From contig JAQVEZ010000001.1 of assembly GCA_028697455.1 (NCBI GenBank), positions 3,902 to 67,901 on the forward strand: a stretch of 64,000 nt of DNA. Reading direction: 5' to 3'. The notes below the pieces were generated by a model. That model was given only the letters and a program-made list of their open reading frames with translations. It ran no database searches and had not been told where the DNA came from. Shown here piece after piece: positions 7,159 through 27,764 of this stretch. The stretch's first letter is position 1, and every line of letters begins with the position of its first letter. A program made the position numbers and the translations under genes. Source of the stretch: Minisyncoccota bacterium. Its GTDB lineage: Bacteria; Patescibacteriota; Minisyncoccia; Phycocordibacterales; UBA1006.

Positions 7159-7797
7159 ATGATAATAACATATTACGGAAAGCAATTTTTTAAACTTCAG
7201 CACGGAGATTTTACCTTGGCAATAAATCCATTGTCAAAAGACAACACTTTGGGGATAAAACCCGCAAAATTTGGCTCACAATTGGCGTTGAGTTCACTGC
7301 ATCATAAAGACTTTAATGGCTTTGAAGCCGTGACATATAATGGGGAAGAGCCTTTTCTTATTTACGGTCCAGGGAGCTATGAGATTAAGGGATATACCTT
7401 TGACGGTTTTCCGAGCGAAGCAAACATCGATGGTAAGTCATATATCAATACTATTTATTTTTTTACCATGGAGGATATTTCTTTTTGTTTTCTTGGAGAT
7501 ATTTTTGACGAACATATTGATCAAAAAGTAAAAGAGTTTATCGAAACCGTTGATGTTATTTTTGTCCCTATAGGAGGAAAGGGGACTCTCGATCCTATCC
7601 AGGCATCTAAAGTTATTCGCTATTTTTCACCGAAAGTTATTATTCCTATGGACTTTGGAAAAGACCGTGATTCAAAAGTCCTTGAGGTTTTTCTTAAGGA
7701 AATGTCATCACATGCAAAAGAAGAAGCAAAATATGTTTTCAAGAAGAAAGATCTTGAGACCTTAAACAATCACGTAGTCCTTCTCAAAGCTCAATAA
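7159..7797 (+). CDS. MBL-fold metal-dependent hydrolase-like protein (UPF0173-like); His motif appears degenerate
   Basis: N-terminus MIITYYGKQFFKLQHGDFTLAINP resembles MKITYLGHACFLIE...ILIDP of YtkL/UlaG-like hydrolases, but no clear HxHxDH motif is visible. Confidence 0.35.
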   Translation: MIITYYGKQFFKLQHGDFTLAINPLSKDNTLGIKPAKFGSQLALSSLHHKDFNGFEAVTYNGEEPFLIYGPGSYEIKGYTFDGFPSEANIDGKSYINTIYFFTMEDISFCFLGDIFDEHIDQKVKEFIETVDVIFVPIGGKGTLDPIQASKVIRYFSPKVIIPMDFGKDRDSKVLEVFLKEMSSHAKEEAKYVFKKKDLETLNNHVVLLKAQ

Positions 7798-7802
7798 TTT
7801 TT

Positions 7803-8156
7803 ATGAAAAGTTTATTCAAGAAATTGAATACTTATCCCGAAGGACTAAAAAAGAAAATAATTCTTTTTTGTGCTGGAGGGGCAACACTTCTATTGTTAGT
7901 GTTTTGGTTTATTCTCACAAGTATTTTTCCGAAAGAGGAACAACAAAACACAGGAGACAGCTTTGAGCTTATTAATGGTTTTGTGAATACCATTTCGAAT
8001 ATGGCTTCTGAGGGGAGCTATCAAGATGACATTTTTTTTACTGAGGATTTAGAACAGCAAACGCAAGAAACTCTCGGCTCAGGAGAAATACCGCAAGAAA
8101 TATTAGAAGAAGCAGTACAAGAAACACAGCAAGGAAACACAAAGGAAACTCTTTAG
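7803..8156 (+). CDS. Hypothetical membrane-anchored protein with acidic C-terminal tail
   Basis: One N-terminal TM (ILFCAGGATLLLLVFWFILTSIF). The C-terminal half is rich in E/Q/T. Confidence 0.4.
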   Translation: MKSLFKKLNTYPEGLKKKIILFCAGGATLLLLVFWFILTSIFPKEEQQNTGDSFELINGFVNTISNMASEGSYQDDIFFTEDLEQQTQETLGSGEIPQEILEEAVQETQQGNTKETL

Positions 8157-10683: not shown

Positions 10684-11232
10684 ATGGATGATTATTCAGG
10701 ACCTAAATTAATTATTAGCCAGTTAGATATTTTTCCTGGACAAGATGTTGTAGACCTTGGTACGGGAGCAGGAGCATATGCTTTTGTATTGGCGGAAAAA
10801 CTTCTTGGAGGGGGAAATAGCTCAAGGGTTTTTGCTATTGATGTTCAAAAGAATCTTCTCGAGAAAATACAGACAGAGGCAGAGTTGAAGGGCTTTTATA
10901 ACCTTAAAACTATTTGGGGAGATATAGAAGCTCATGAAGGAACACGACTTAGAGACAACTCTATTGACTGGGTTTTTTTGGCGAACACCCTTTTTCAGGC
11001 AGAAGATAAAAATGCTCTTCTCAGAGAAGCACTCCGCATTGTGAGACCAGGGGGGAGATTTGTTCTCATTGACTGGAGCTCAGGTTTAGGACAAGGAGCT
11101 ATTGGCCCAAGCTCTGTTCAAGTTATCCCAGAAAATGAGGCAAAGACAATGTGTGAGAATGTAGGGTTTGAGTTTATAAAAACACTCTCGGCAGGAGAAC
11201 ATCATTATTGTCTTGTCTTTAAGAAAAATTAA
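10684..11232 (+). CDS. Class I SAM-dependent methyltransferase
   Basis: Motif I VVDLGTGAGAYAFVLAEK and a downstream acidic-loop motif. An extended -10 (TGCTATACT) lies 6 nt before the ATG. Confidence 0.7.
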   Translation: MDDYSGPKLIISQLDIFPGQDVVDLGTGAGAYAFVLAEKLLGGGNSSRVFAIDVQKNLLEKIQTEAELKGFYNLKTIWGDIEAHEGTRLRDNSIDWVFLANTLFQAEDKNALLREALRIVRPGGRFVLIDWSSGLGQGAIGPSSVQVIPENEAKTMCENVGFEFIKTLSAGEHHYCLVFKKN

Positions 11233-11237
11233 TTTTT

Positions 11238-12596
11238 ATGAAAGAAATTTTAACTATAAAGAATATTATTATTGCTCTTTTTGCTCTTTTTGCAATTGTT
11301 GCTTTTCTTATCTTTTCTGGATTCATTAAAGTGGGGAAATCAGCGCAACAAGCTCGAGGGTCGGTTGTTGTGTGGGGGACGATCCCTTTTTCAGTTATGC
11401 AACCATATATTGATAAAATTCAAGACACGCATCTTACGGTAACGTATTCTGAAAAGAAAGAGGCAACCTATGAGTCAGAACTTATTAATGCTTTTGCTTC
11501 CGGAACAGGGCCTGATTTGTTTATTATGTCCCACGAAGCTATTTTGAGGAATAGTGACAAGGTTTTTGAAGTTCCATATACCTCTTTCCGAAAAGATATC
11601 TACGAGAATTCGTATATTTCGGAAGCTCGTCTTTTTTTGACAGAGACAGGGATACTCGCGTTTCCTCTTTTTGTTGATCCTTTGGTTATGTATTACAATA
11701 AGCCATTGATTGCATCATATTCACCAACCTTTTCTCTTAGACTACCTCAATACTGGTCAGAGTTTCAGGAGTTTGCGCGAGAGGTGACACAATATAACGA
11801 AACGGGGGAGGTTATTATTTCAGCTGTTGGTCTCGGGACTTTTGATAATATTCTTCATGCAAAAGATATTCTTGCAACTCTTTTTATTCAAAATGGAAAT
11901 CAGATTGTTGGAACAAACACCACAACAGGAAAAAAGCAATCTGTTTTGACTTTTAATGAAACGGCTCTTGGCCAGTCAGAAGAAATTGTTAATTTCTATA
12001 CTTCTTTTTCACGCTTTGGTTCAACAAACTATTCTTGGAACGAAGCTCTTCTTGATACCCAAAATTCTTTTATTTCAGGGAATCTTGCCGTGTATTTTGG
12101 ACTTGGAAGTGAGGCTGGAGATATTCGTATGAAAAACCCAAATCTTGATTTTGGAGTAATGCGTTTCCCCCAGAAATGTGATCCTTTCACCTCTGGATGT
12201 AATAATTCTTCTGCATATACTTTCGGTGCAATGACAGGAATTGCCGTAAGCAAACATAGCAAGAATCTTCCCGCAGCCCTTGCCGTTGCTTCAAAAGTTG
12301 CCGGAGGAGATATCGTAAAAGGACTTGCAACTGATTTTCAGGTAGCTCCTGCGCGTAAAGATATCCTCTCTTCACTCCTTCAGGAGAGAGCAGGAGATCC
12401 TCTTAATATTCTTCGCTATGAATCAGCAGTTATTGCGACAGGGTGGTTTGACCCAGATAATCGAGAGACTGAAAATATTTTTTCATCTCTTATTCGAAAT
12501 GTTAATTCTTTGGCATTGAGTTCTCGTCAGGCACTCGCCCAAACTCAAGCAGCACTGAACCTCCTTCTTGATAGGACCATTAACCTCAGAGCATAA
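11238..12596 (+). CDS. Extracellular solute-binding protein (ABC transporter SBP family 1-like), membrane-anchored; no permease partner genes in window
   Basis: N-terminal TM anchor followed by GSVVVWGT...LINAFASGTGPDLFIMSHEAI, typical of SBP_bac_1 N-lobes. Confidence 0.5.
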   Translation: MKEILTIKNIIIALFALFAIVAFLIFSGFIKVGKSAQQARGSVVVWGTIPFSVMQPYIDKIQDTHLTVTYSEKKEATYESELINAFASGTGPDLFIMSHEAILRNSDKVFEVPYTSFRKDIYENSYISEARLFLTETGILAFPLFVDPLVMYYNKPLIASYSPTFSLRLPQYWSEFQEFAREVTQYNETGEVIISAVGLGTFDNILHAKDILATLFIQNGNQIVGTNTTTGKKQSVLTFNETALGQSEEIVNFYTSFSRFGSTNYSWNEALLDTQNSFISGNLAVYFGLGSEAGDIRMKNPNLDFGVMRFPQKCDPFTSGCNNSSAYTFGAMTGIAVSKHSKNLPAALAVASKVAGGDIVKGLATDFQVAPARKDILSSLLQERAGDPLNILRYESAVIATGWFDPDNRETENIFSSLIRNVNSLALSSRQALAQTQAALNLLLDRTINLRA

Positions 12597-12613
12597 TCAT
12601 TTTTATCAAAACT

Positions 12614-12656
12614 TACGGAGCCATTTTAGGGCCGTAAGTTTTTCTTTTGCTGCTTG
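12614..12656 (+). terminator. Hairpin terminator (acttacgg...ccgtaagt followed by a T-run)
   Basis: 9-bp inverted repeat with a 14-nt loop followed by TTTTCTTTT. Confidence 0.45.
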
Positions 12657-12679
12657 TTTCGTGATATACTATTTTTAGT

Positions 12680-13639
12680 ATGAATAAGCGTTTTTTTAGA
12701 TATTTTTTTATCCTTTTTCCCCTTGTTTTCTTTGGTATTTTTCAGTGGTCTCCGTCAGAAGCACAGGAGTCAGCTAATGGTGTTAAGGCTCACTGGGGAA
12801 CAGTAGAGTTACAACAAAATAGCAATGGTAATTATACGTATTCTATTAACAGCTCCGGAAATATCACACGGGAGAGTAGCGATACGGTTTATCTCAATGT
12901 ATCAAAAACCTCTGAACAGAACACCGAAGAAGTTTCTTATTACACTCTTTGTAGCTTTGATGCTTCAGCAGGATTGTCGTTTAGTGTTGCATATCCTGCT
13001 TGTGCCAACCCACAGAGTATTCTCAATGTTCAACCAGGATATATTTATAAAATATATTTCTCTGATGGATTAAATTCTTCAAAAATTATTAATAATCTCG
13101 GTGAAGGACAGGGGATTTTTCAACTTCCTTCTGCTCCTGCGTTCGGAGGAGTACAAGAAAATGAACAAAACCCGTTTGGTGGGTTAGAAGGGAAACCAGG
13201 TGGTGATGGGACAACCCAGGCTGAAGAAGAGCAAAACGACCCGATCACCACCACAACCTCTTCCGAAGGAGAAGGTCCTACTACCGCCACAACAACACAA
13301 GAAAGTGATGGAGGGCTCGTTTCTAAGGAATGCGGGTATAACCTTTCTAATGGAGGAAGGATTTGTGGCTTTTCAGATCTCATTGGTCTTCTTGATAGGA
13401 TTATTCAATTTATCTTTATTCTCGCTATCCCTATTGCAGCTCTTGTCTTTGCTTATGCAGGGTTCCTCTACCTTACAAGTGGGGGAAACACTGACAAACA
13501 CAAGAAGGCGGTTAAGGCGATGACTACCGTGGTCAAAGGGATTCTTGTGGTGATGGTTGCGTGGCTCGCTGTCAAAACTATTTTGGTAAGTCTCGGAGCT
13601 TCGCCCGATTCAGCATGGTTTTGGCTTGATGTTAAATAG
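12680..13639 (+). CDS. Secreted protein: ~200-aa Cys-containing extracellular domain, Thr-rich linker, and C-terminal 2-TM TrbC/VirB2-like pilin module
   Basis: Signal peptide MNKRFFRYFFILFPLVFFGIFQWSPSEA. Linker TTTTSSEGEGPTTATTTQ. The C-terminus (IQFIFILAIPIAALVFAYAGFLYLTSGGNTDKHKKAVKAMTTVVKGILVVMVAWLAVKTIL) has the same 2-TM plus basic-loop architecture as the five small paralogs downstream. Confidence 0.55.
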   Translation: MNKRFFRYFFILFPLVFFGIFQWSPSEAQESANGVKAHWGTVELQQNSNGNYTYSINSSGNITRESSDTVYLNVSKTSEQNTEEVSYYTLCSFDASAGLSFSVAYPACANPQSILNVQPGYIYKIYFSDGLNSSKIINNLGEGQGIFQLPSAPAFGGVQENEQNPFGGLEGKPGGDGTTQAEEEQNDPITTTTSSEGEGPTTATTTQESDGGLVSKECGYNLSNGGRICGFSDLIGLLDRIIQFIFILAIPIAALVFAYAGFLYLTSGGNTDKHKKAVKAMTTVVKGILVVMVAWLAVKTILVSLGASPDSAWFWLDVK

Positions 13640-13755
13640 TATATTTATTGCAGATATTTTTGTTTTTATGTTAAAATAAGGATAACTTCTTGTGATAGTT
13701 CTTGATCAAGAAGGTAATAATCGATTATTATTTAATTTTTTAAGTACGAGTTTTT

Positions 13756-14118
13756 ATGAAAAAATTTATTGTTGGAGGAGCAATTTTCTTGACACCTTTT
13801 TTGGCTTTTGCTCAAACAACCTTTGGAACTATCTTAGGAACCATCGGAGGTTTTATTAATGCCCTTATTCCTATTCTCATTGCAGCAGGTCTTGCATTCT
13901 TCATTTATGGAGTTGTTCGATATGTTATTGCAAAAGACGGAGATGATAAGAAAAAAGCAACTGGAATTATTATCAACGGAATCATAGGACTCTTTGTTAT
14001 CCTTTCTATTTGGGGGCTTGTTGGAGTTATTCAGTCAACCTTTGGTATTGGAACAGGAGCAACCCTTAATCAAGATCAAATCCCAGGAGTATGTCTACCA
14101 GGACAACCAGGATGTTAA
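13756..14118 (+). CDS. Small secreted 2-TM pilin-like protein (TrbC/VirB2-like family)
   Basis: Signal peptide MKKFIVGGAIFLTPFLAFA; TM1 ALIPILIAAGLAFFIYGVV; basic loop KDGDDKKKATG; TM2 IIINGIIGLFVILSIWGLVGV. Confidence 0.55.
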   Translation: MKKFIVGGAIFLTPFLAFAQTTFGTILGTIGGFINALIPILIAAGLAFFIYGVVRYVIAKDGDDKKKATGIIINGIIGLFVILSIWGLVGVIQSTFGIGTGATLNQDQIPGVCLPGQPGC

Positions 14119-14160
14119 TCTTATAATAAAATCCTCTCTTTTGAGAGGTTTTTACTTTGC

Positions 14161-14541
14161 TTGATACGTGATATTATAGGGCTATCTATGAAACAGCTTC
14201 TTGAACAATTTACTTCATATTTTACTGTGCCCTATGCGGAAGCAGCCATGTCAGACCTTCATTCTTTTTTAGGAAGACTTAATGATCAGATCATTAACCC
14301 TCTCATCGCTCTTGCCTTTGCTGTTGCTCTTGTTTATTTTGTGACAGGTCTCTTTACTTTTTTTAAAAAAGAAAGTGGATCAGATTCACGAGAAAAAGGG
14401 AAGCGACATATCGTGTGGGGAGTGATTGGTATGGCAGTAATGATTTCTGTTTTTGGGATTATTTCTTTTCTTACAAATACTCTGGGAGTTGGGAATGTTG
14501 ATCCTTCTTCTACAGGAGATATTTCAAGTCTCTTTAATTAA
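14161..14541 (+). CDS. Small 2-TM pilin-like protein paralog (TrbC/VirB2-like)
   Basis: TM1 INPLIALAFAVALVYFVTGLF, basic loop KKESGSDSREKGKRH, TM2 IVWGVIGMAVMISVFGII. Same topology as 13756-14118. Confidence 0.5.
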   Translation: MIRDIIGLSMKQLLEQFTSYFTVPYAEAAMSDLHSFLGRLNDQIINPLIALAFAVALVYFVTGLFTFFKKESGSDSREKGKRHIVWGVIGMAVMISVFGIISFLTNTLGVGNVDPSSTGDISSLFN

Positions 14542-14543
14542 AA

Positions 14544-14578
14544 AAAGCGAGTCACTTAATACGTGCTCGCTTTGTTCT
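14544..14578. terminator. Bidirectional hairpin terminator between convergent genes
   Basis: aagcgag-(14-nt loop)-ctcgctt flanked by A-run and T-run. Confidence 0.45.
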
Positions 14579-14582
14579 TGGA

Positions 14583-15827
14583 TTATTTCTTTTCGAGACT
14601 CTCTTCGAGCTTCTTAATCATCCCTTCTTGATCAGAAGAGGTTTTAAGAAGTTTTGTAAACTCCTTTAAAGACTCTGCTATTTCAGGAGGAATAAGCCCA
14701 TCCCCATTTGGAGTTCCTATAGAGATGATCTTTTCTTCCTGATAAGCATCTGAGAAAAGCTCTGCCACCATCGTCCTTCGGGTCGCTGAGATTTTACCCT
14801 CAGGGTCGATTACCTCAAAAAGTTCCATCTGGGCTTGGTAAATTTTTTGCTTTACCTCCCCAACTTGGGCTATTTTCTTTGCCTCAACTTCTGCTGCAGC
14901 AAAACCTTCAATTTTGGAAGCTTCTGCATCTCCTTCTGCCTTGACAATCCTTGCAGTTTTTTCAACTCCTGCAAGAGCTTTTCTCTTGAGGGAATCTTGG
15001 ACATCCTTTGCGACAAAGAAGGTCTTGATATAGAATCTCCCAGCAATCCCCGCAAAAGGAAATCTAAAAAGAACGCCTGTTTGGTTTTTGTCTTCAAAAA
15101 AGTCAAAACCATTCGAAGTTCTCTCATAGTCTCCACGGGAACCACCTACAGAGACAAAGTCCTCAAGACATTGAAAGTAACTTTTTTCAATTCTGTTTGA
15201 GGCATCCTTGTCTCTAAAAATTTCTTCAAGGGTGTAGTCATCGAAGGTCTTATTTAGAGACTTCAATGACACCTCATGAATAATTTTTTTAAGACCATCT
15301 TCTCCTACGGAAAGAAGGAAGTCAGCGTACTTCCAAGGATCCTCTATGAAATAAGTGAAACCATTGGTACCGTCGACATGGACGCCATCAGAAGTCTTTA
15401 CCTTCTCAAAGGGGTATTCGAGAGGTGTCGGTGTTTTGGTGAACACCCATACATCGAATATCTCAGGGAAGAAGGGAACCTTTGTCAGATTCCTATAGTC
15501 TCCCTCTTTGAGAATCCATGGAAATCTCTGGCTTCCCTTGAGCTCCCCAAGAATTGTAATGATCCCAAAGGAACCGCCTTCAATTTCAAGATAATCTCCA
15601 GCAGAGAAGCTTATCAGAAATAGAACTCCGATGATGCCAAAAATGAACAAAGGATTCATCCCGAAGGCAATCCAGAAGAGGAGACCCAATATTGAGCCTA
15701 CAATTCCAGAAATGATCAGGTGGATCTGAATATTCCACCACAGCACCTTGGAATTCCACAGTGCTGGACTGAGCCCCCGTGCCCTCCCAAAAAGGTTGGG
15801 CAAGAGGTTTTCGAATATTTTTCTCAT
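14583..15827 (-). CDS. SPFH/band-7 (stomatin/prohibitin-like) domain membrane protein
   Basis: N-terminal TMs (IHLIISGIVGSILGLLFWIAF...). C-terminal Ala/Glu-rich segment KDVQDSLKRKALAGVEKTARIVKAEGDAEASKIEGFAAAEVEAKKIAQVGEV typical of SPFH C-terminal coiled coils. The start was moved to the internal MRKIFENL to avoid overlapping the gene upstream; the ORF track extends to 15965. Confidence 0.5.
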   Translation of the reverse strand: MRKIFENLLPNLFGRARGLSPALWNSKVLWWNIQIHLIISGIVGSILGLLFWIAFGMNPLFIFGIIGVLFLISFSAGDYLEIEGGSFGIITILGELKGSQRFPWILKEGDYRNLTKVPFFPEIFDVWVFTKTPTPLEYPFEKVKTSDGVHVDGTNGFTYFIEDPWKYADFLLSVGEDGLKKIIHEVSLKSLNKTFDDYTLEEIFRDKDASNRIEKSYFQCLEDFVSVGGSRGDYERTSNGFDFFEDKNQTGVLFRFPFAGIAGRFYIKTFFVAKDVQDSLKRKALAGVEKTARIVKAEGDAEASKIEGFAAAEVEAKKIAQVGEVKQKIYQAQMELFEVIDPEGKISATRRTMVAELFSDAYQEEKIISIGTPNGDGLIPPEIAESLKEFTKLLKTSSDQEGMIKKLEESLEKK

Positions 15828-15846
15828 TTTTCGTTTTTTAAATATT

Positions 15847-16284
15847 CTACTTTGTGAGAATTCTTTGTTCTCCATACCCGCATCTGATTTCAACCGGTGC
15901 AGTTTCACTGCCCCATACCCAGACACCGGTATCCTCATAGCTGAGAACGTGTCCGTCCGCTTCAAATGGCTTACCCTGTTTTTTGTTTTTGTCAGAGTAA
16001 ATTATCATATTGAGGGTTTCACTTGGGGTATAAAAATCTACCCTTCGTGAGCCCTTTTTTGATCCAAACGGCACAAACTGCCAATCTCCTTTTTGGAGGA
16101 GAACCATGGTAACCATCTCGGAGGAGGCTACAGATCTTTTCTTTTCAGAAGAGTTTCCTCCCCAAAAATAGAAAACCAGGAGTGCCAGCCCAATAAGAAC
16201 CAGTACGATCCATTTTAACGGAAACCCTGCCGTTCCCTTGGAAGAAGTGTTTGCACCGCTTCCTTTTTTAGCTGCTTTTTTCAT
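15847..16284 (-). CDS. Hypothetical membrane-anchored protein
   Basis: Basic N-terminus, then one TM (IVLVLIGLALLVFYFW) and a ~100-aa extracytoplasmic domain. Confidence 0.4.
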   Translation of the reverse strand: MKKAAKKGSGANTSSKGTAGFPLKWIVLVLIGLALLVFYFWGGNSSEKKRSVASSEMVTMVLLQKGDWQFVPFGSKKGSRRVDFYTPSETLNMIIYSDKNKKQGKPFEADGHVLSYEDTGVWVWGSETAPVEIRCGYGEQRILTK

Positions 16285-16382
16285 AGCTCTTTAATTTTTA
16301 AATGTTCACTTTGAATACTATCACATTTTGAAGCTATTGTCAATTTATAAGAGTTCTTAAAGCTGTGATATACTTTTAAGGT

Positions 16383-16808
16383 ATGAATAAATATTTTCTT
16401 GCAAAACTTTACTCATTTTTAATTTTTGCACTTTCTTTTGGCGGAGGGTTAAAAGGTGTTTTTGCTCAGGGGAAATCAGGGACTGATACCCCACCAGGGC
16501 AATCAGGATCTGACACTCCAGAAGGAGTTCCTGGGATGTCGATCAAGCTCGATAACCCTCTTGGAACAACTGACAGTATTCCTATGTTGATCAAGAGACT
16601 CCTTGATGTTGTTTTGACCATTGGGGTTCCTTTAATAGCCTTGGCTATTATTTATGCAGGTTTTCAACTCGTTACTGCTCAAGGGAATACAGAAAAACTT
16701 AAGGTAGCCAAGAGAAACCTTGTCTACGTTGTTATTGGGGCGGGAATTCTTCTTGCAGCTTATGCTATCTCTGAAGTAATCGTTGGGACCGTCACCGCTA
16801 TTCGTTAG
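16383..16808 (+). CDS. Secreted 2-TM pilin-like protein (TrbC/VirB2-like)
   Basis: Signal peptide MNKYFLAKLYSFLIFALSFGGGLKGVFA, Pro/Gly/Thr-rich spacer, TM1 VVLTIGVPLIALAIIYAGFQLV, basic loop QGNTEKLKVAKRN, TM2 LVYVVIGAGILLAAYAI. The start context (tgatatact..aaggtATGAATAAATA) is shared with the two BNR-protein genes. Confidence 0.55.
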   Translation: MNKYFLAKLYSFLIFALSFGGGLKGVFAQGKSGTDTPPGQSGSDTPEGVPGMSIKLDNPLGTTDSIPMLIKRLLDVVLTIGVPLIALAIIYAGFQLVTAQGNTEKLKVAKRNLVYVVIGAGILLAAYAISEVIVGTVTAIR

Positions 16809-16824
16809 CCACACATTAGGAATT

Positions 16825-17175
16825 ATGAACATTTTTAGAAATAAATGGATACTTACTTTGGGGGCTCTTTTGTTACCAAGTTTTGCTCTTGCTGCAACGA
16901 CCTTTAAAAATATTATTTTTTCAACGCTTGATATTATTGGAAATTATTTAATGCCAGTTTTGTTTGCACTTGCCTTGGCTTATTTTATTTGGGGAGTAGC
17001 TGATTTTATTCTATCAGCAAACAATCAAGCCGAACGAGAAGCAGGGAAGACGAGAATTATTTGGGGAATTGTGGCTCTTTTTGCAATGGTTGCGTACCTT
17101 GGACTTGTAAATATTTTTAGTTCAGGGTTCTTTAACACCAGTTCGACCTTACTTCCTCAATTGTTTACCTCTTAA
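16825..17175 (+). CDS. Small 2-TM pilin-like protein paralog
   Basis: AGGA RBS before the internal ATG at ~16825 (MNIFRNKWILTLGALLLPSFALA signal), TM1 MPVLFALALAYFIWGVADFIL, loop NQAEREAGKTR, TM2 IIWGIVALFAMVAYLGLV. Confidence 0.5.
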   Translation: MNIFRNKWILTLGALLLPSFALAATTFKNIIFSTLDIIGNYLMPVLFALALAYFIWGVADFILSANNQAEREAGKTRIIWGIVALFAMVAYLGLVNIFSSGFFNTSSTLLPQLFTS

Positions 17176-17178
17176 ACT

Positions 17179-17529
17179 ATGACATCAAATCTCAAAAAAA
17201 ATATCATTGCGCTTGGTGCAAGTACGTTCCCAGTTTTTTCCTTTGCTCAGGTAGGGCAAAATATAAAATCTTTTCTCTCTTCGATAGGAACTCTTGTTAA
17301 TGCGTATATTATTCCTCTTTTGATTTCACTTGCCCTCCTCTATACCATTCTCTCGGGGGTGAGATTGATTCAGGAATCTGATTCTGCAAAGAAAGGGGAG
17401 AGAAGAACTCAACTATTGTGGGGAATTATAGGACTCTTTATTATCCTTTCTATTTGGGGAATTCTTGCGGTATTTTCAAATACTTTTACTGAAGTCTTTA
17501 TGGGGGGGACCATACAACCTGGAAAATAG
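17179..17529 (+). CDS. Small 2-TM pilin-like protein paralog
   Basis: Signal peptide, TM1 IIPLLISLALLYTILSGV, loop QESDSAKKGERRTQ, TM2 LLWGIIGLFIILSIWGILAV. Very similar to 13756-14118 (shared motif GLFxILSIWG). Confidence 0.55.
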   Translation: MTSNLKKNIIALGASTFPVFSFAQVGQNIKSFLSSIGTLVNAYIIPLLISLALLYTILSGVRLIQESDSAKKGERRTQLLWGIIGLFIILSIWGILAVFSNTFTEVFMGGTIQPGK

Positions 17530-17543
17530 TTTTTTAAAAAACA

Positions 17544-17577
17544 AAACTCGTCTTTGCAACGAGTTTTGTTTTTGATA
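17544..17577 (+). terminator. Rho-independent terminator ending the pilin-like gene array
   Basis: aaaactcgt-ctttgca-acgagtttt followed by GTTTTTG. Confidence 0.5.
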
Positions 17578-17585
17578 CTTTCTTT

Positions 17586-17670
17586 TGGTGCCCAAGAGAG
17601 GACTTGAACCTCCACGCGTTGCCGCACTGGTTCCTAAGACCAGCGTGTCTACCGATTCCACCACCTGGGC
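17586..17670 (-). tRNA. tRNA-Leu (anticodon TAG), long variable arm, CCA encoded
   Basis: Read on the minus strand: GCCCAGGTGGTGGAATCGGTAGACACGCTGGTCTTAGGAACCAGTGCGGCAACGCGTGGAGGTTCAAGTCCTCTCTTGGGCACCA. Cloverleaf with anticodon loop CTTAGGA and T-loop TTCAAGT. Confidence 0.85.
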
Positions 17671-17880
17671 AGGTGTGTTTACCCATCTGTATAAAAGAAT
17701 AGTTTTTTTATTTCAATACACATGCAGGCGTGTCTACCGCTTACTATTCTTTGCACCACCTGGGCAGGTGTGTTTACCCATCTGTATAAAAGAATAGTTT
17801 TTTTATTTCGATACACACGCAGGCGTGTCTACCGCTTACTATTCTTTGCACCACCTGGGCAGGTGTGTATCCCGAGCTGT
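17671..17880. repeat. Tandem direct repeat, 95-bp unit x ~2.2, starting at the 5' boundary of tRNA-Leu(TAG); each unit carries a tRNA 5'-fragment-like segment
   Basis: Unit aggtgtgtttacccatctgtataaaagaatagtttttttatttc[a/g]atacaca[t/c]gcaggcgtgtctaccgcttactattctttgcaccacctgggc at 17671-17765 and 17766-17860, plus a partial third copy. Two SNPs between units. Each unit contains ccacctgggcagg and gtgtctaccg, which match the tRNA acceptor/D-arm on the minus strand. Confidence 0.85.
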
Positions 17881-17944
17881 ACTTAACAAGATCTTTAGAT
17901 TCTGCAAGCCCCGGATTTATTACGTATTGATGATTCATTACGTG

Positions 17945-26447: not shown

Positions 26448-27764
26448 ATGAATAAATATATTTTTACATCACTACTATCGTTATTTGTGATAGTAGGTTT
26501 TATAAGTTTTATTAATCCACACACAGCTTCTGCCCAACCTCTTGAATGGGAAGAGTTTGATCTCAGCCCCAATGAATATAATTCTATTGCCTATGGAAAT
26601 GGTGTGTATGTTGCTGTAGGAAGCGGAACCCCCATGTATTCCTCTGATGGGAAGAATTGGAATATGTCAATTCTTCCAAACGCAGCATCACTATCCTCAG
26701 TTGTTTATGGAGATGGGAAGTTTGTTGCGGTGGGGAGAACAGGTTCCCCACTTATGCAAAATATGAATCGGATTATTTACCTTTCTTCTGACGGGCTTTC
26801 CTGGGATATTGCTTCATCAATCCCCGATAAGTTAAATGCACAAAGCAATCTTCTCAGTATTTTTTATATGTATGATAATCTCAACGCTAAAGATTTATTT
26901 GTAGCCTTCGGGCAGGACTACTCTACAGGTGCTGGATCTACTAGCTTACCTTATATTGTTTATTCTTCTGATGGGGACGCCTGGCTCAGATCTACTCTGC
27001 CAATAGGTTCTGACGGAAGCCCGTCCGATGCAGTTGTAGGATATAACGAAAATGGAGAGCTTGTTCTTTTATCCTTTGTATATGGATATGGTATTGGTGC
27101 TCCTTCTTATTATATTATGTCTATTGACGGTGGAGCAACTTGGGTTTACCCGGACTCCCTTACAGGGCTTGATGATTTTCAGGGGCTAAGCATGAGTTAT
27201 CTCAACGGAAAATTTTTCTACGTGGGACATTCTTATGACGATGAAGAAGGTAAGGATCTGTTCTCTGTGAGATCCTCTATGAATGGACTTGATTGGGATA
27301 AAGGATCAATAGAGTTTCCTGAAGAATTCTTATCGGGTAGTAGGGAGACATCTGCTTATGGAGATAACACGTATCTTTTTTTCCTTTCCCCATCACTTGG
27401 TTACACACCCCCTCTCTATTCCCCCAACGGAGAAACCTGGGAATTCTTTACCCCAAGTTTTGATAAGAGTAGTTATGTATCTCCTATCCAATTAATTTAT
27501 GCAGAAGATTCATTTATGCTCCTTGGTCGAAATGAATCAGGAGGATATGTTATTGCTTTTCCCAAATCCTTGAATGATTCATCAGAAATACCTTCTTCAA
27601 AATCCTCAAGTATTTTCGGAACTCGATTCTGTACAGCAGGAGTTACTACCTTCTGTAGACCTCAGAATGGATTTACCAACAATAATCCATTAGTAAATAT
27701 TTACACTGAACTCTTGGGGCTTTATCAGCAACTTTTGAATACGATTCAAAATGAAAACAGCTAA
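26448..27764 (+). CDS. Secreted BNR/Asp-box repeat (beta-propeller-like) protein with a conserved C-terminal domain
   Basis: Signal peptide. Asp-box motifs SSDGKNW, SSDGLSW, SSDGDAW, SIDGGATW. Repeated YG.G.FVAVG blades. The C-terminal ~50 aa (SSIFGTRFCTAGVTTFCRPQNGFTNNNPLVNIYTELLGLYQQLL) is shared with 4728-5279. Confidence 0.65.
   Translation: MNKYIFTSLLSLFVIVGFISFINPHTASAQPLEWEEFDLSPNEYNSIAYGNGVYVAVGSGTPMYSSDGKNWNMSILPNAASLSSVVYGDGKFVAVGRTGSPLMQNMNRIIYLSSDGLSWDIASSIPDKLNAQSNLLSIFYMYDNLNAKDLFVAFGQDYSTGAGSTSLPYIVYSSDGDAWLRSTLPIGSDGSPSDAVVGYNENGELVLLSFVYGYGIGAPSYYIMSIDGGATWVYPDSLTGLDDFQGLSMSYLNGKFFYVGHSYDDEEGKDLFSVRSSMNGLDWDKGSIEFPEEFLSGSRETSAYGDNTYLFFLSPSLGYTPPLYSPNGETWEFFTPSFDKSSYVSPIQLIYAEDSFMLLGRNESGGYVIAFPKSLNDSSEIPSSKSSSIFGTRFCTAGVTTFCRPQNGFTNNNPLVNIYTELLGLYQQLLNTIQNENS

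Follow-up and report, generated by a model that had tools for sequence, protein, structure and literature searches.

The window analyzed here is a stretch of 64,000 nucleotides from contig JAQVEZ010000001.1 (assembly GCA_028697455.1), a piece of the chromosome of a Candidatus Paceibacterota metagenome-assembled genome (MAG), which belongs to the Patescibacteria or candidate phyla radiation (CPR). Its large genes are of the housekeeping kind and encode EF-G, SecY, GyrA, IF-2, ClpB, LeuRS, a penicillin-binding protein, FtsZ/FtsA, MreB and Mur ligases. The subject of the analysis is a gene for a modular pilin, termed pilin 1 (p1), which occupies positions 12680-13639 of the + strand as a single uninterrupted open reading frame (ORF) of 319 aa and stands first among six pilin genes (p1-p6). 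Its product is 100% identical to a protein held at NCBI as 'MAG: pilin [Candidatus Pacebacteria bacterium]', which comes from a 165-kb contig.

The p1 protein begins with a signal peptide (aa 1-28; 12680..12763, +) that is delimited by hydropathy and charge and consists of a basic n-region (MNKRFFRY), a hydrophobic core at aa 5-23 and a cleavage motif with SEA before the cut and Q after it, which reads ..FAQ in relatives; AlphaFold2 (AF2) models a helix at aa 3-19. The following segment (aa 29-155; 12764..13144, +) contains Cys91 and Cys108 and is modeled by AF2 as an Ig-like beta-sandwich ectodomain. It is joined to a disordered acidic stalk rich in Gly, Thr and Glu (aa 156-215; 13145..13324, +; predicted local distance difference test score (pLDDT) 27-30), which has 12 Gly, 11 Thr and 9 Glu residues and a net charge of -11, and which includes the poly-Thr tract TTTTSSEGEGPTTATTTQESDGG at aa 191-213. 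Next comes a Cys hairpin, KECGYNLSNGGRICG (aa 216-230; 13325..13369, +), modeled as a short beta-hairpin, whose cysteines C218 and C229 are invariant in 18/18 and 23/23 aligned homologues and which is kept even in small p1 orthologues of 121-130 aa. The remainder of the gene (13370..13639, +) encodes a VirB2-like pilin module consisting of a helix at 231-266, the basic loop TSGGNTDKHKKAVKAM, a second helix at 271-304 and a short tail before the stop codon. This module matches PF18895 (T4SS_pilin) over aa 236-299 with 30.1 bits, above the curated cut-off of 26.6, and is modeled as a helical hairpin with a pLDDT of ~80-86. In the full-length AF2 model, which is built on an 18-sequence alignment, the beta-sandwich extends over aa ~33-150 with a pLDDT of ~90 and aa 156-215 are disordered with a pLDDT <30.

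The first-pass annotation of this DNA had described p1 as a secreted domain of ~200 aa with paired cysteines, fused through a Thr-rich linker to the same two-helix module as the small paralogs. The fusion in one frame, the Thr-rich tract and the cysteines (positions 91, 108, 218 and 229) are borne out, as is the kinship of the module, since all six pilins score above the PF18895 cut-off. Secretion is likewise predicted from the Sec signal peptide, the acidic ectodomain and linker and the Lys-rich loop. The supposed ~200 aa divide into a domain of ~127 aa and a linker of ~60 aa. A scan of the window's other ORFs finds no Thr/Ser-rich linker of this kind.

The hydrophobic stretches of p1 lie at aa 5-23, 231-268 and 277-309. 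The Lys-rich loop between the two helices of the pilin module has a net charge of +3 and, by the positive-inside rule, is predicted to be cytoplasmic, which would put the two hairpin ends, and with them the ectodomain, outside the cell. The count of N-x-S/T sequons, 6 where 3.2 would be expected, amounts to no significant enrichment (p~0.08). A contig from another sample (L035), which encodes an S5 protein identical to that of the window, carries a DsbB homologue (7385-7906) near the ribosomal protein cluster, at a position ~2 kb upstream of the window's start. A DsbB gene nearby fits disulfide formation in the conserved Cys pairs and implies that exported proteins are folded oxidatively in this organism with its reduced genome.

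When the ectodomain is modeled alone, AF2 returns a structure of ~127 aa with at least seven strands, a pLDDT of 90.9 and a predicted template modeling score (pTM) of 0.83. No Pfam family matches it, the best candidate being the K319L-like PKD domain at 14.5 bits (cut-off 27). Foldseek searches of the PDB with the full and the domain-only models give nothing at E<=1e-3 (best E 1.3e-2, template modeling (TM) score <=0.46), and a search of BFVD with the full model gives nothing at the same threshold. The top sub-significant PDB matches are Ig-like domains of GH2 enzymes, the FN3 domain of IL-17RA, the carbohydrate-binding domain of Wzt and RhoGDI. A lectin or adhesin fold was therefore dropped as a candidate, since the structure searches yield only generic Ig/FN3-like sandwiches. 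The ectodomain is best described as a confidently predicted Ig-like sandwich.

Among 1.84 billion cluster representatives, a profile of the ectodomain matches only 61 proteins, and 43 of these matches have E<=1e-10. Every complete specific match also ends in a PF18895-type pilin module. The only matches lacking this module are two fragments truncated by contig ends and a weak tail of eight proteins, giant or eukaryotic, whose FN3/SdrD_B/CarboxypepD_reg-type repeats align over only ~40 residues around the 'PG..Y' strand. The pilin modules fused to the ectodomain are nearly all of the CGYNL...ICGF subtype, and one (P0044) is of the p4 subtype. Orthologous fusions are thus present in related genomes: full-length p1 homologues come from many samples and from independent NCBI, JGI, ENA and Logan assemblies, fall into >50 clusters at 50% identity and all have a precomputed PF18895 annotation.

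The p1 protein belongs to a set of six pilins. Downstream of it on the + strand lie p2 (120 aa; 13756..14118; PF18895, 39 bits), which has orthologues in all related arrays; p3 (117 aa counted from the ATG; 14188..14541; 28.4 bits), for which the mechanical ORF starts at TTG 14161; p4 (141 aa; 16383..16808; 37.2 bits), the sister type to p1; p5 (16825..17175; 32.1 bits), whose exact start is uncertain (ORF 16783/16825); and p6 (116 aa; 17179..17529; 28.1 bits), with a terminator-like hairpin found 3' of it by a terminator scan (17537-17573). All five paralogs exceed the PF18895 cut-off (28.1-39 bits), and p3 and p4 also weakly match PF04956 (TrbC/VirB2), p4 at E=2.9e-5. The six modules align over the same helix-loop-helix, and each weakly matches NCBIfam NF045849 (E 5.6e-3 to 8.9e-9; 16-35 bits against a cut-off of 40). 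As an array, the set comprises six genes at 12680-17529 with two interposed genes, 14-31% identity and source names of Paceibacterota/Patescibacteria. A homologue search with the pilin module alone retrieved 11 candidates and one match and was of no use for a census of PF18895 protein lengths.

Clear orthologues of all six pilins are present throughout the clade, so that p1-p6 constitute six conserved orthogroups, among which p1 and p4 form a sequence subtype apart from p2, p3, p5 and p6. This conservation speaks for separate roles of the six within a single assembly and against a rapidly turning-over array that serves antigenic variation. A distinct and conserved p1 orthogroup would likewise fit a specialized rather than a bulk subunit.

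Comparison of p1 orthologues identifies a single insertion point for additional domains. In four species the orthologue has only 121-130 aa, and its signal peptide leads directly into ..LVPxC...CxF and then into the pilin module. In other species the length is 164, 226-231, 314-326 or 378-790 aa, and p1-type proteins among metagenomic cluster representatives reach 837 aa. The inserts are mutually unrelated, including the Ig-like domain, a Cys-rich domain and FN3/purple-acid-phosphatase-N-like repeats. All of them lie between the signal peptide and the Cys hairpin and are followed by Gly/Ser/Thr-rich linkers.

Other members of the set also carry cargo. The p4 protein has 141 aa in the window versus 270 or 297 aa in sister strains (L001 2226-3038; L008 9646-10539), where 465 bp replace window positions 16398-16477 and a paralogous copy of the Ig-like domain follows the signal peptide; p4 of the window has no ectodomain and keeps only the short Pro/Thr/Ser/Gly linker GKSGTDTPPGQSGSDTPEGVPG. 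A p3 orthologue (L026 11606-13615; 669 aa) has an N-terminal pilin module at aa 33-86 and a C-terminal extension of ~580 aa with no Pfam match. Large pilins in the last array position also occur in three further loci (L028, 353 aa; L030, 405 aa; L033, 256 aa). Both N- and C-terminal extensions are therefore found within this pilin set. In solved conjugative pili the basic loop between the helices faces the lumen, and in the F- and T-pilus structures the pilin termini are at the outside. With this arrangement, cargo on either terminus would be displayed and would be compatible with assembly.

The exchange of ectodomains between strains was analyzed in four close relatives, P0001-P0004. The gene call for P0002 (299 aa) is 5'-truncated, and a conserved in-frame ATG (MNKRFLRY...) is located 57 nt upstream of it (region L011 4180-4240), so that P0002 also has a full signal peptide. 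Two ectodomain types are distinguished: type A (P0001 and P0002, 88% identity) and type B (P0003 and P0004, 96%), with 62-66% identity between types. The pilin modules divide differently, into type 1 (P0001 and P0003, 100% identity) and type 2 (P0002 and P0004, 99%), with 92% between types. All four combinations of ectodomain A or B with pilin 1 or 2 are present, which is the four-gamete pattern. Between P0001 and P0003 the synonymous divergence (dS) of the pilin module is 0.03; that of the ectodomain is saturated, with a nonsynonymous divergence (dN) of 0.25. Between P0003 and P0004 the order is reversed, with a dS of 0.33 for the ectodomain and 0.65 for the pilin module. The dN/dS ratio of ~0.1 within types shows purifying selection on each cassette.

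The pattern is one of recombination with a breakpoint in the poly-Thr linker, which moves old, functionally constrained alleles, and not of rapid drift by point mutation. P0003 and P0004 each contain an additional first domain, and these two domains are dissimilar (26% identity); in P0003 (L008), 504 bp replace window positions 12710-12793 directly after the signal peptide. Strain-to-strain exchange of the ectodomain is what a recognition module would be expected to show.

The surroundings of p1 are conserved as well. In relatives whose p1 is 32-38% identical overall, the gene order is gyrA, a UbiE-type methyltransferase gene, SBP_bac_1, p1, p2 and p3, then an SPFH gene and a gene for a 145-aa protein on the other strand, followed by p4, p5 and p6 and, further on, rbfA and infB. 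A locus scan using one genome per GTDB species yielded 23 loci, all from Patescibacteria by content. Two of these loci come from MAGs labeled Crocinitomicaceae and Nannocystaceae (L016, JBLIKX010000009.1, and L027, JAESSZ010000115.1, respectively), and each has a gene for a p1-type pilin with the Cys hairpin. The L016 contig contains the complete gyrA-SBP-pilin locus with a GyrA 74% identical to that of the window, and both contigs are probably mis-binned. Several third-party annotation (TPA) MAGs named 'Saccharibacteria' show the same synteny and may also be wrongly labeled. The locus had been called an island by the first-pass annotation, an idea that is rejected because GC is even across the window (35-41%) with the pilin locus no different from its flanks, and because synteny is conserved across a broad Paceibacteria clade.

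The gene immediately 5' of p1 (11238..12596, +; PF01547, 58.7 bits) encodes an orphan, membrane-anchored solute-binding protein (SBP) of the SBP_bac_1 family, and no ABC permease or ATPase partner for it is found nearby. It holds the same position in L003, L005 and L007 and in 20/23 of the GTDB loci, and in most it abuts or overlaps p1. Such adjacency suggests that the two genes are co-transcribed and that the SBP is functionally tied to the pilin set. Linkage to the pilin locus is just as tight for the UbiE-type methyltransferase gene (10684-11232). Inside the array, the SPFH/Band_7 gene (14583..15965, -; PF01145, 29.8 bits) encodes ~413 aa from an internal ATG, and 5' of it lies a gene, defined by its ORF and translation, for a 145-aa protein with a single transmembrane segment (15847..16284, -). 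The 145-aa protein has no family match in profile searches and its gene is the conserved partner of SPFH in L001, L003, L005, L007 and L008; the pair may represent an NfeD-like arrangement. The SPFH pair lies within the array only in the closer clade, and the distant clade has the uninterrupted order p1-p4-p5-p2-p3 with no SPFH pair.

Between the SBP gene and p1 there is a terminator-like hairpin with a T-run (12608..12650, +; -15.5 kcal/mol, z = -3.0), the stem of which is retained in sister strains through compensatory changes. In more distant relatives p1 is probably co-transcribed with the abutting SBP gene. An extended -10-like box, TGATATACT (12662..12670, +), lies 9 nt before the p1 ATG as in a leaderless-type start, and four strains show no change in either the box or the start codon. 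Boxes of this kind also stand before p3 (TGATATTAT, 10 nt upstream) and p4 (TGATATACT, 8 nt upstream). Across the window, a -10-like hexamer (often TATACT) occurs at -16..-4 in 18/68 ORFs versus 6-8/68 at control offsets, mostly ending 6-9 nt before the start codon (for example at 10684, 12680, 14188, 16383 and 30612), and Shine-Dalgarno-like motifs are at background level in the same 68 ORFs. The genome evidently uses leaderless-type starts, and p1 is ordinary in that respect. The box singled out by the first-pass annotation is therefore real and correctly placed, and the idea of a promoter special to p1 is rejected because the -10-near-ATG layout is found genome-wide.

Two further features of the window lie downstream of the array. 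At 17656-17896, a 95-bp unit is present in 2.5 tandem copies, the first two of which are 97% identical. The start of each copy is formed by the 5' end of the minus-strand tRNA-Leu(tag) together with sequence upstream of the tRNA, and the repeat lies inside a tRNA gene cluster with four members (Leu, Lys, Leu and Cys). At 26448-27764 (+), a 438-aa ORF with a sub-threshold match to DUF6242 (21.9 bits) may encode another uncharacterized exported protein.

Taken as a whole, p1 is read here as a VirB2-like pilin of modular build, one of a conserved set of six, that displays an exchangeable recognition domain and serves as a specialized subunit of a surface structure, a reading that we judge about evenly balanced between right and wrong. 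Its parts differ in strength. The sequence analysis shows the architecture of p1, its predicted topology, family assignment, orthology and synteny, and the exchange of cassettes. Surface display and modularity of p1 are well supported; filament assembly, a tip or minor role, adhesion, O-glycosylation and disulfides are what we infer. The process would begin with export of the p1 precursor by Sec and cleavage by signal peptidase I after S-E-A. The two C-terminal helices would then insert into the membrane as a hairpin that keeps the Lys-rich loop on the cytoplasmic side and has its two ends outside. At its N-terminal end this helical hairpin would bear the Cys hairpin, probably stapled by a disulfide, and next outward would come the disordered acidic Thr/Gly-rich stalk of ~60 residues, possibly O-glycosylated. 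At the far end, the Ig-like beta-sandwich of ~127 residues would act as an exchangeable surface module on a nearly constant pilin module, the kind and number of domains at this position varying among lineages and even between sister strains. Built in this way, p1 would be a minor or tip-type subunit that adds a variable recognition or attachment domain to a structure of six pilins, most likely a pilus or stub of VirB2-like type on the cell surface, and its likely target would be the surface of a host or partner cell. The proposal of the first-pass annotation that p1 displays an adhesin at the tip or as a minor subunit accordingly survives in part: the specialized orthogroup and the cassette exchange fit it, and the lectin or adhesin fold does not come through the structure searches.

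Several observations count against this reading. Genes for VirB4, VirB6 and VirD4 are absent from the 64-kb window and from 10 kb past each end (~84 kb), where the genes are again of the housekeeping kind, and the related loci examined likewise have no type IV secretion system (T4SS) assembly genes within 10 kb. The relatives' assemblies are not listed in the supplement of the Patescibacteria T4SS survey, which was consulted for their VirB4 status. A pilus built from these VirB2-like proteins has not been seen in any Patescibacterium, and monoderm T4SSs are normally without VirB2 pilins. A profile of the six paralogs, searched against PDB sequences, gives chance matches to membrane proteins and no solved VirB2 or TraA. 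The ectodomain has no significant structural neighbor or recognizable binding site, which leaves adhesion as something we purely infer.

The main rival, which we consider possible and clearly the less probable of the two, is that the PF18895 hairpin is only a membrane anchor and p1 a stalked S-layer-like or coat protein. The six proteins would then form a membrane complex, perhaps organized by SPFH, and no filament. The lack of T4SS assembly genes near the locus and of any pilus in the Patescibacteria T4SS studies speaks for this alternative, as does the SPFH/Band_7 pair embedded in the array. A Thr-rich stalk beside a membrane anchor is also the layout of archaeal S-layer glycoproteins, which p1 resembles in this respect. 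However, the conservation of six orthogroups of a small hairpin protein over long distances is hard to explain for simple anchors, the distant clade keeps the array without the SPFH pair, and genuine pilus subunits are homologues of this family.

An improbable variant keeps the filament and makes p1 a decorated major subunit along its whole length, giving a fiber coated with stalked Ig-like domains. A flexible linker of 60 residues would ease steric clash, and p1 heads the array with a promoter-like element of its own. Yet extra domains of 400-700 aa on p1 in several lineages would be bulky for a repeating unit, and the p1/p4 subtype is distinct from p2, p3, p5 and p6, as is usual for minor subunits. 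It is more doubtful still, to the point of being very unlikely, that the ectodomain is a pro-domain or passenger, with proteolysis near G-(I/L)-V-P-x-C freeing a soluble Ig-like protein and leaving a pilin of normal size. The long leaders of canonical VirB2/TraA propilins are indeed removed, and the mature part of the small p1 orthologues starts right at ..LVPxC. Against this, the ectodomain is well folded and under purifying selection and is thus no leader, the locus has no linked protease gene and other pilins of the set carry C-terminal extensions. That p1 is an artefact of two genes joined by a frameshift or assembly error has no observation in its favor and can be dismissed almost entirely, because the same continuous architecture recurs in the independent NCBI, JGI, ENA and Logan assemblies (>50 clusters) and the start codon and upstream region are conserved.

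The reading of p1 as a specialized display subunit can be extended to the whole locus, in a form that is speculative and rather unlikely to hold in full. The locus might encode a core-genome surface organelle of Paceibacteria, consisting of six VirB2-like pilins unlinked to a T4SS ATPase and co-transcribed with the orphan, sugar-type SBP. In such an organelle p1 and p4 would be platforms for receptor-binding cassettes that set host or partner specificity, and together with the SBP they would provide a contact-dependent route for the uptake of host-derived molecules.

Host recognition and attachment by Patescibacteria are largely unexplained and most of these organisms are not cultivable. In the single species open to genetic work, arrays of VirB2-like pilins are essential. 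The outward-facing, folded and strain-swappable domain predicted for p1 is a concrete candidate for a specificity determinant, and it offers a natural epitope for microscopy of the structure in enrichments. The fixed insertion point, the unrelated inserts and the recombination in the linker indicate that the VirB2 fold tolerates large terminal cargo, which is relevant to engineering pili for display. Because the linkage to the SBP gene is tight and ancient and lies away from T4SS genes, it may be asked whether these pilins cooperate with a T4SS at all.

Among the known systems close to p1 are the VirB2/TrbC/TraA pilins (PF04956, PF18895), with which it shares a Sec-type leader, two hydrophobic helices, a short basic loop and paralogs in a row. 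It differs in its mature form of ~291 aa, comprising ectodomain and stalk, versus ~70-120 aa in those pilins, in its extra conserved Cys hairpin, in the lack of adjoining virB4 or other T4SS genes and in its monoderm host organism. Of the traits of the PF18895 superfamily, p1 thus has the leader and the helix-loop-helix, and departs from the small-module-only size and the linkage to T4SS genes. Among the texts searched, an ectodomain-bearing VirB2-type pilin is an arrangement new for this pilin type.

Arrays of VirB2-like pilins are known in Patescibacteria (Wang 2023; Quinonero-Coronel 2025), and a survey reports 441 arrays of 2-11 genes with a mean identity of ~25% in 383/3,035 assemblies. 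The same survey places a pilin gene near virB4 in 1,135 of the 1,948 assemblies that have both. Southlakia epibionticum has six essential VirB2-like pilins inside a T4SS cluster, and a recent review speculates on a Patescibacteria pilus as a conduit. The window array agrees with these in phylum and Pfam family, in its six divergent paralogs and in its interruption by non-pilin genes, which may also occur there. Those arrays are described with small pilins and proximity to virB4 is stressed for them, whereas the window array is not near virB4 within the ~84 kb examined. The texts searched on Patescibacteria pilin arrays and T4SSs make no mention of pilins with extra domains, and in the Patescibacteria texts searched there is likewise no mention of cassette exchange, of a core locus linked to gyrA and SBP or of separation from T4SS genes. 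The 'Mbov_0395 family pilin-like conjugal transfer proteins' (NF045849) of integrative and conjugative elements in Mycoplasma are similar as small two-helix proteins of T4SS-like systems in wall-less or monoderm cells, but the window's pilins score below the cut-off of that family and the Mycoplasma proteins have no ectodomain.

The concept of 'modular pilins' is established for type IV pili only. The nearest parallel, PilB of Streptococcus sanguinis, is also a fusion of a pilin with a surface module (vWA), and it is a minor subunit of a multi-pilin set in a monoderm, as p1 would be. The two belong to unrelated superfamilies and the likeness is one of analogy only: p1 has no class III signal peptide or prepilin-peptidase motif but an ordinary Sec leader with an A-x-A-type site, and its helices are C-terminal. 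The extra module of p1 is N-terminal on a long disordered stalk, whereas that of PilB is grafted onto the C-terminal globular head. VirB5-type tip proteins and PrgB of Gram-positive conjugation, surface adhesins that are proteins in their own right, resemble p1 in the role proposed for it, contact with target cells for a T4SS-type apparatus, and adhesins of the PrgB type are reported to be absent from Patescibacteria. Neither is homologous to p1, whose putative recognition domain is instead covalently part of a VirB2-like subunit.

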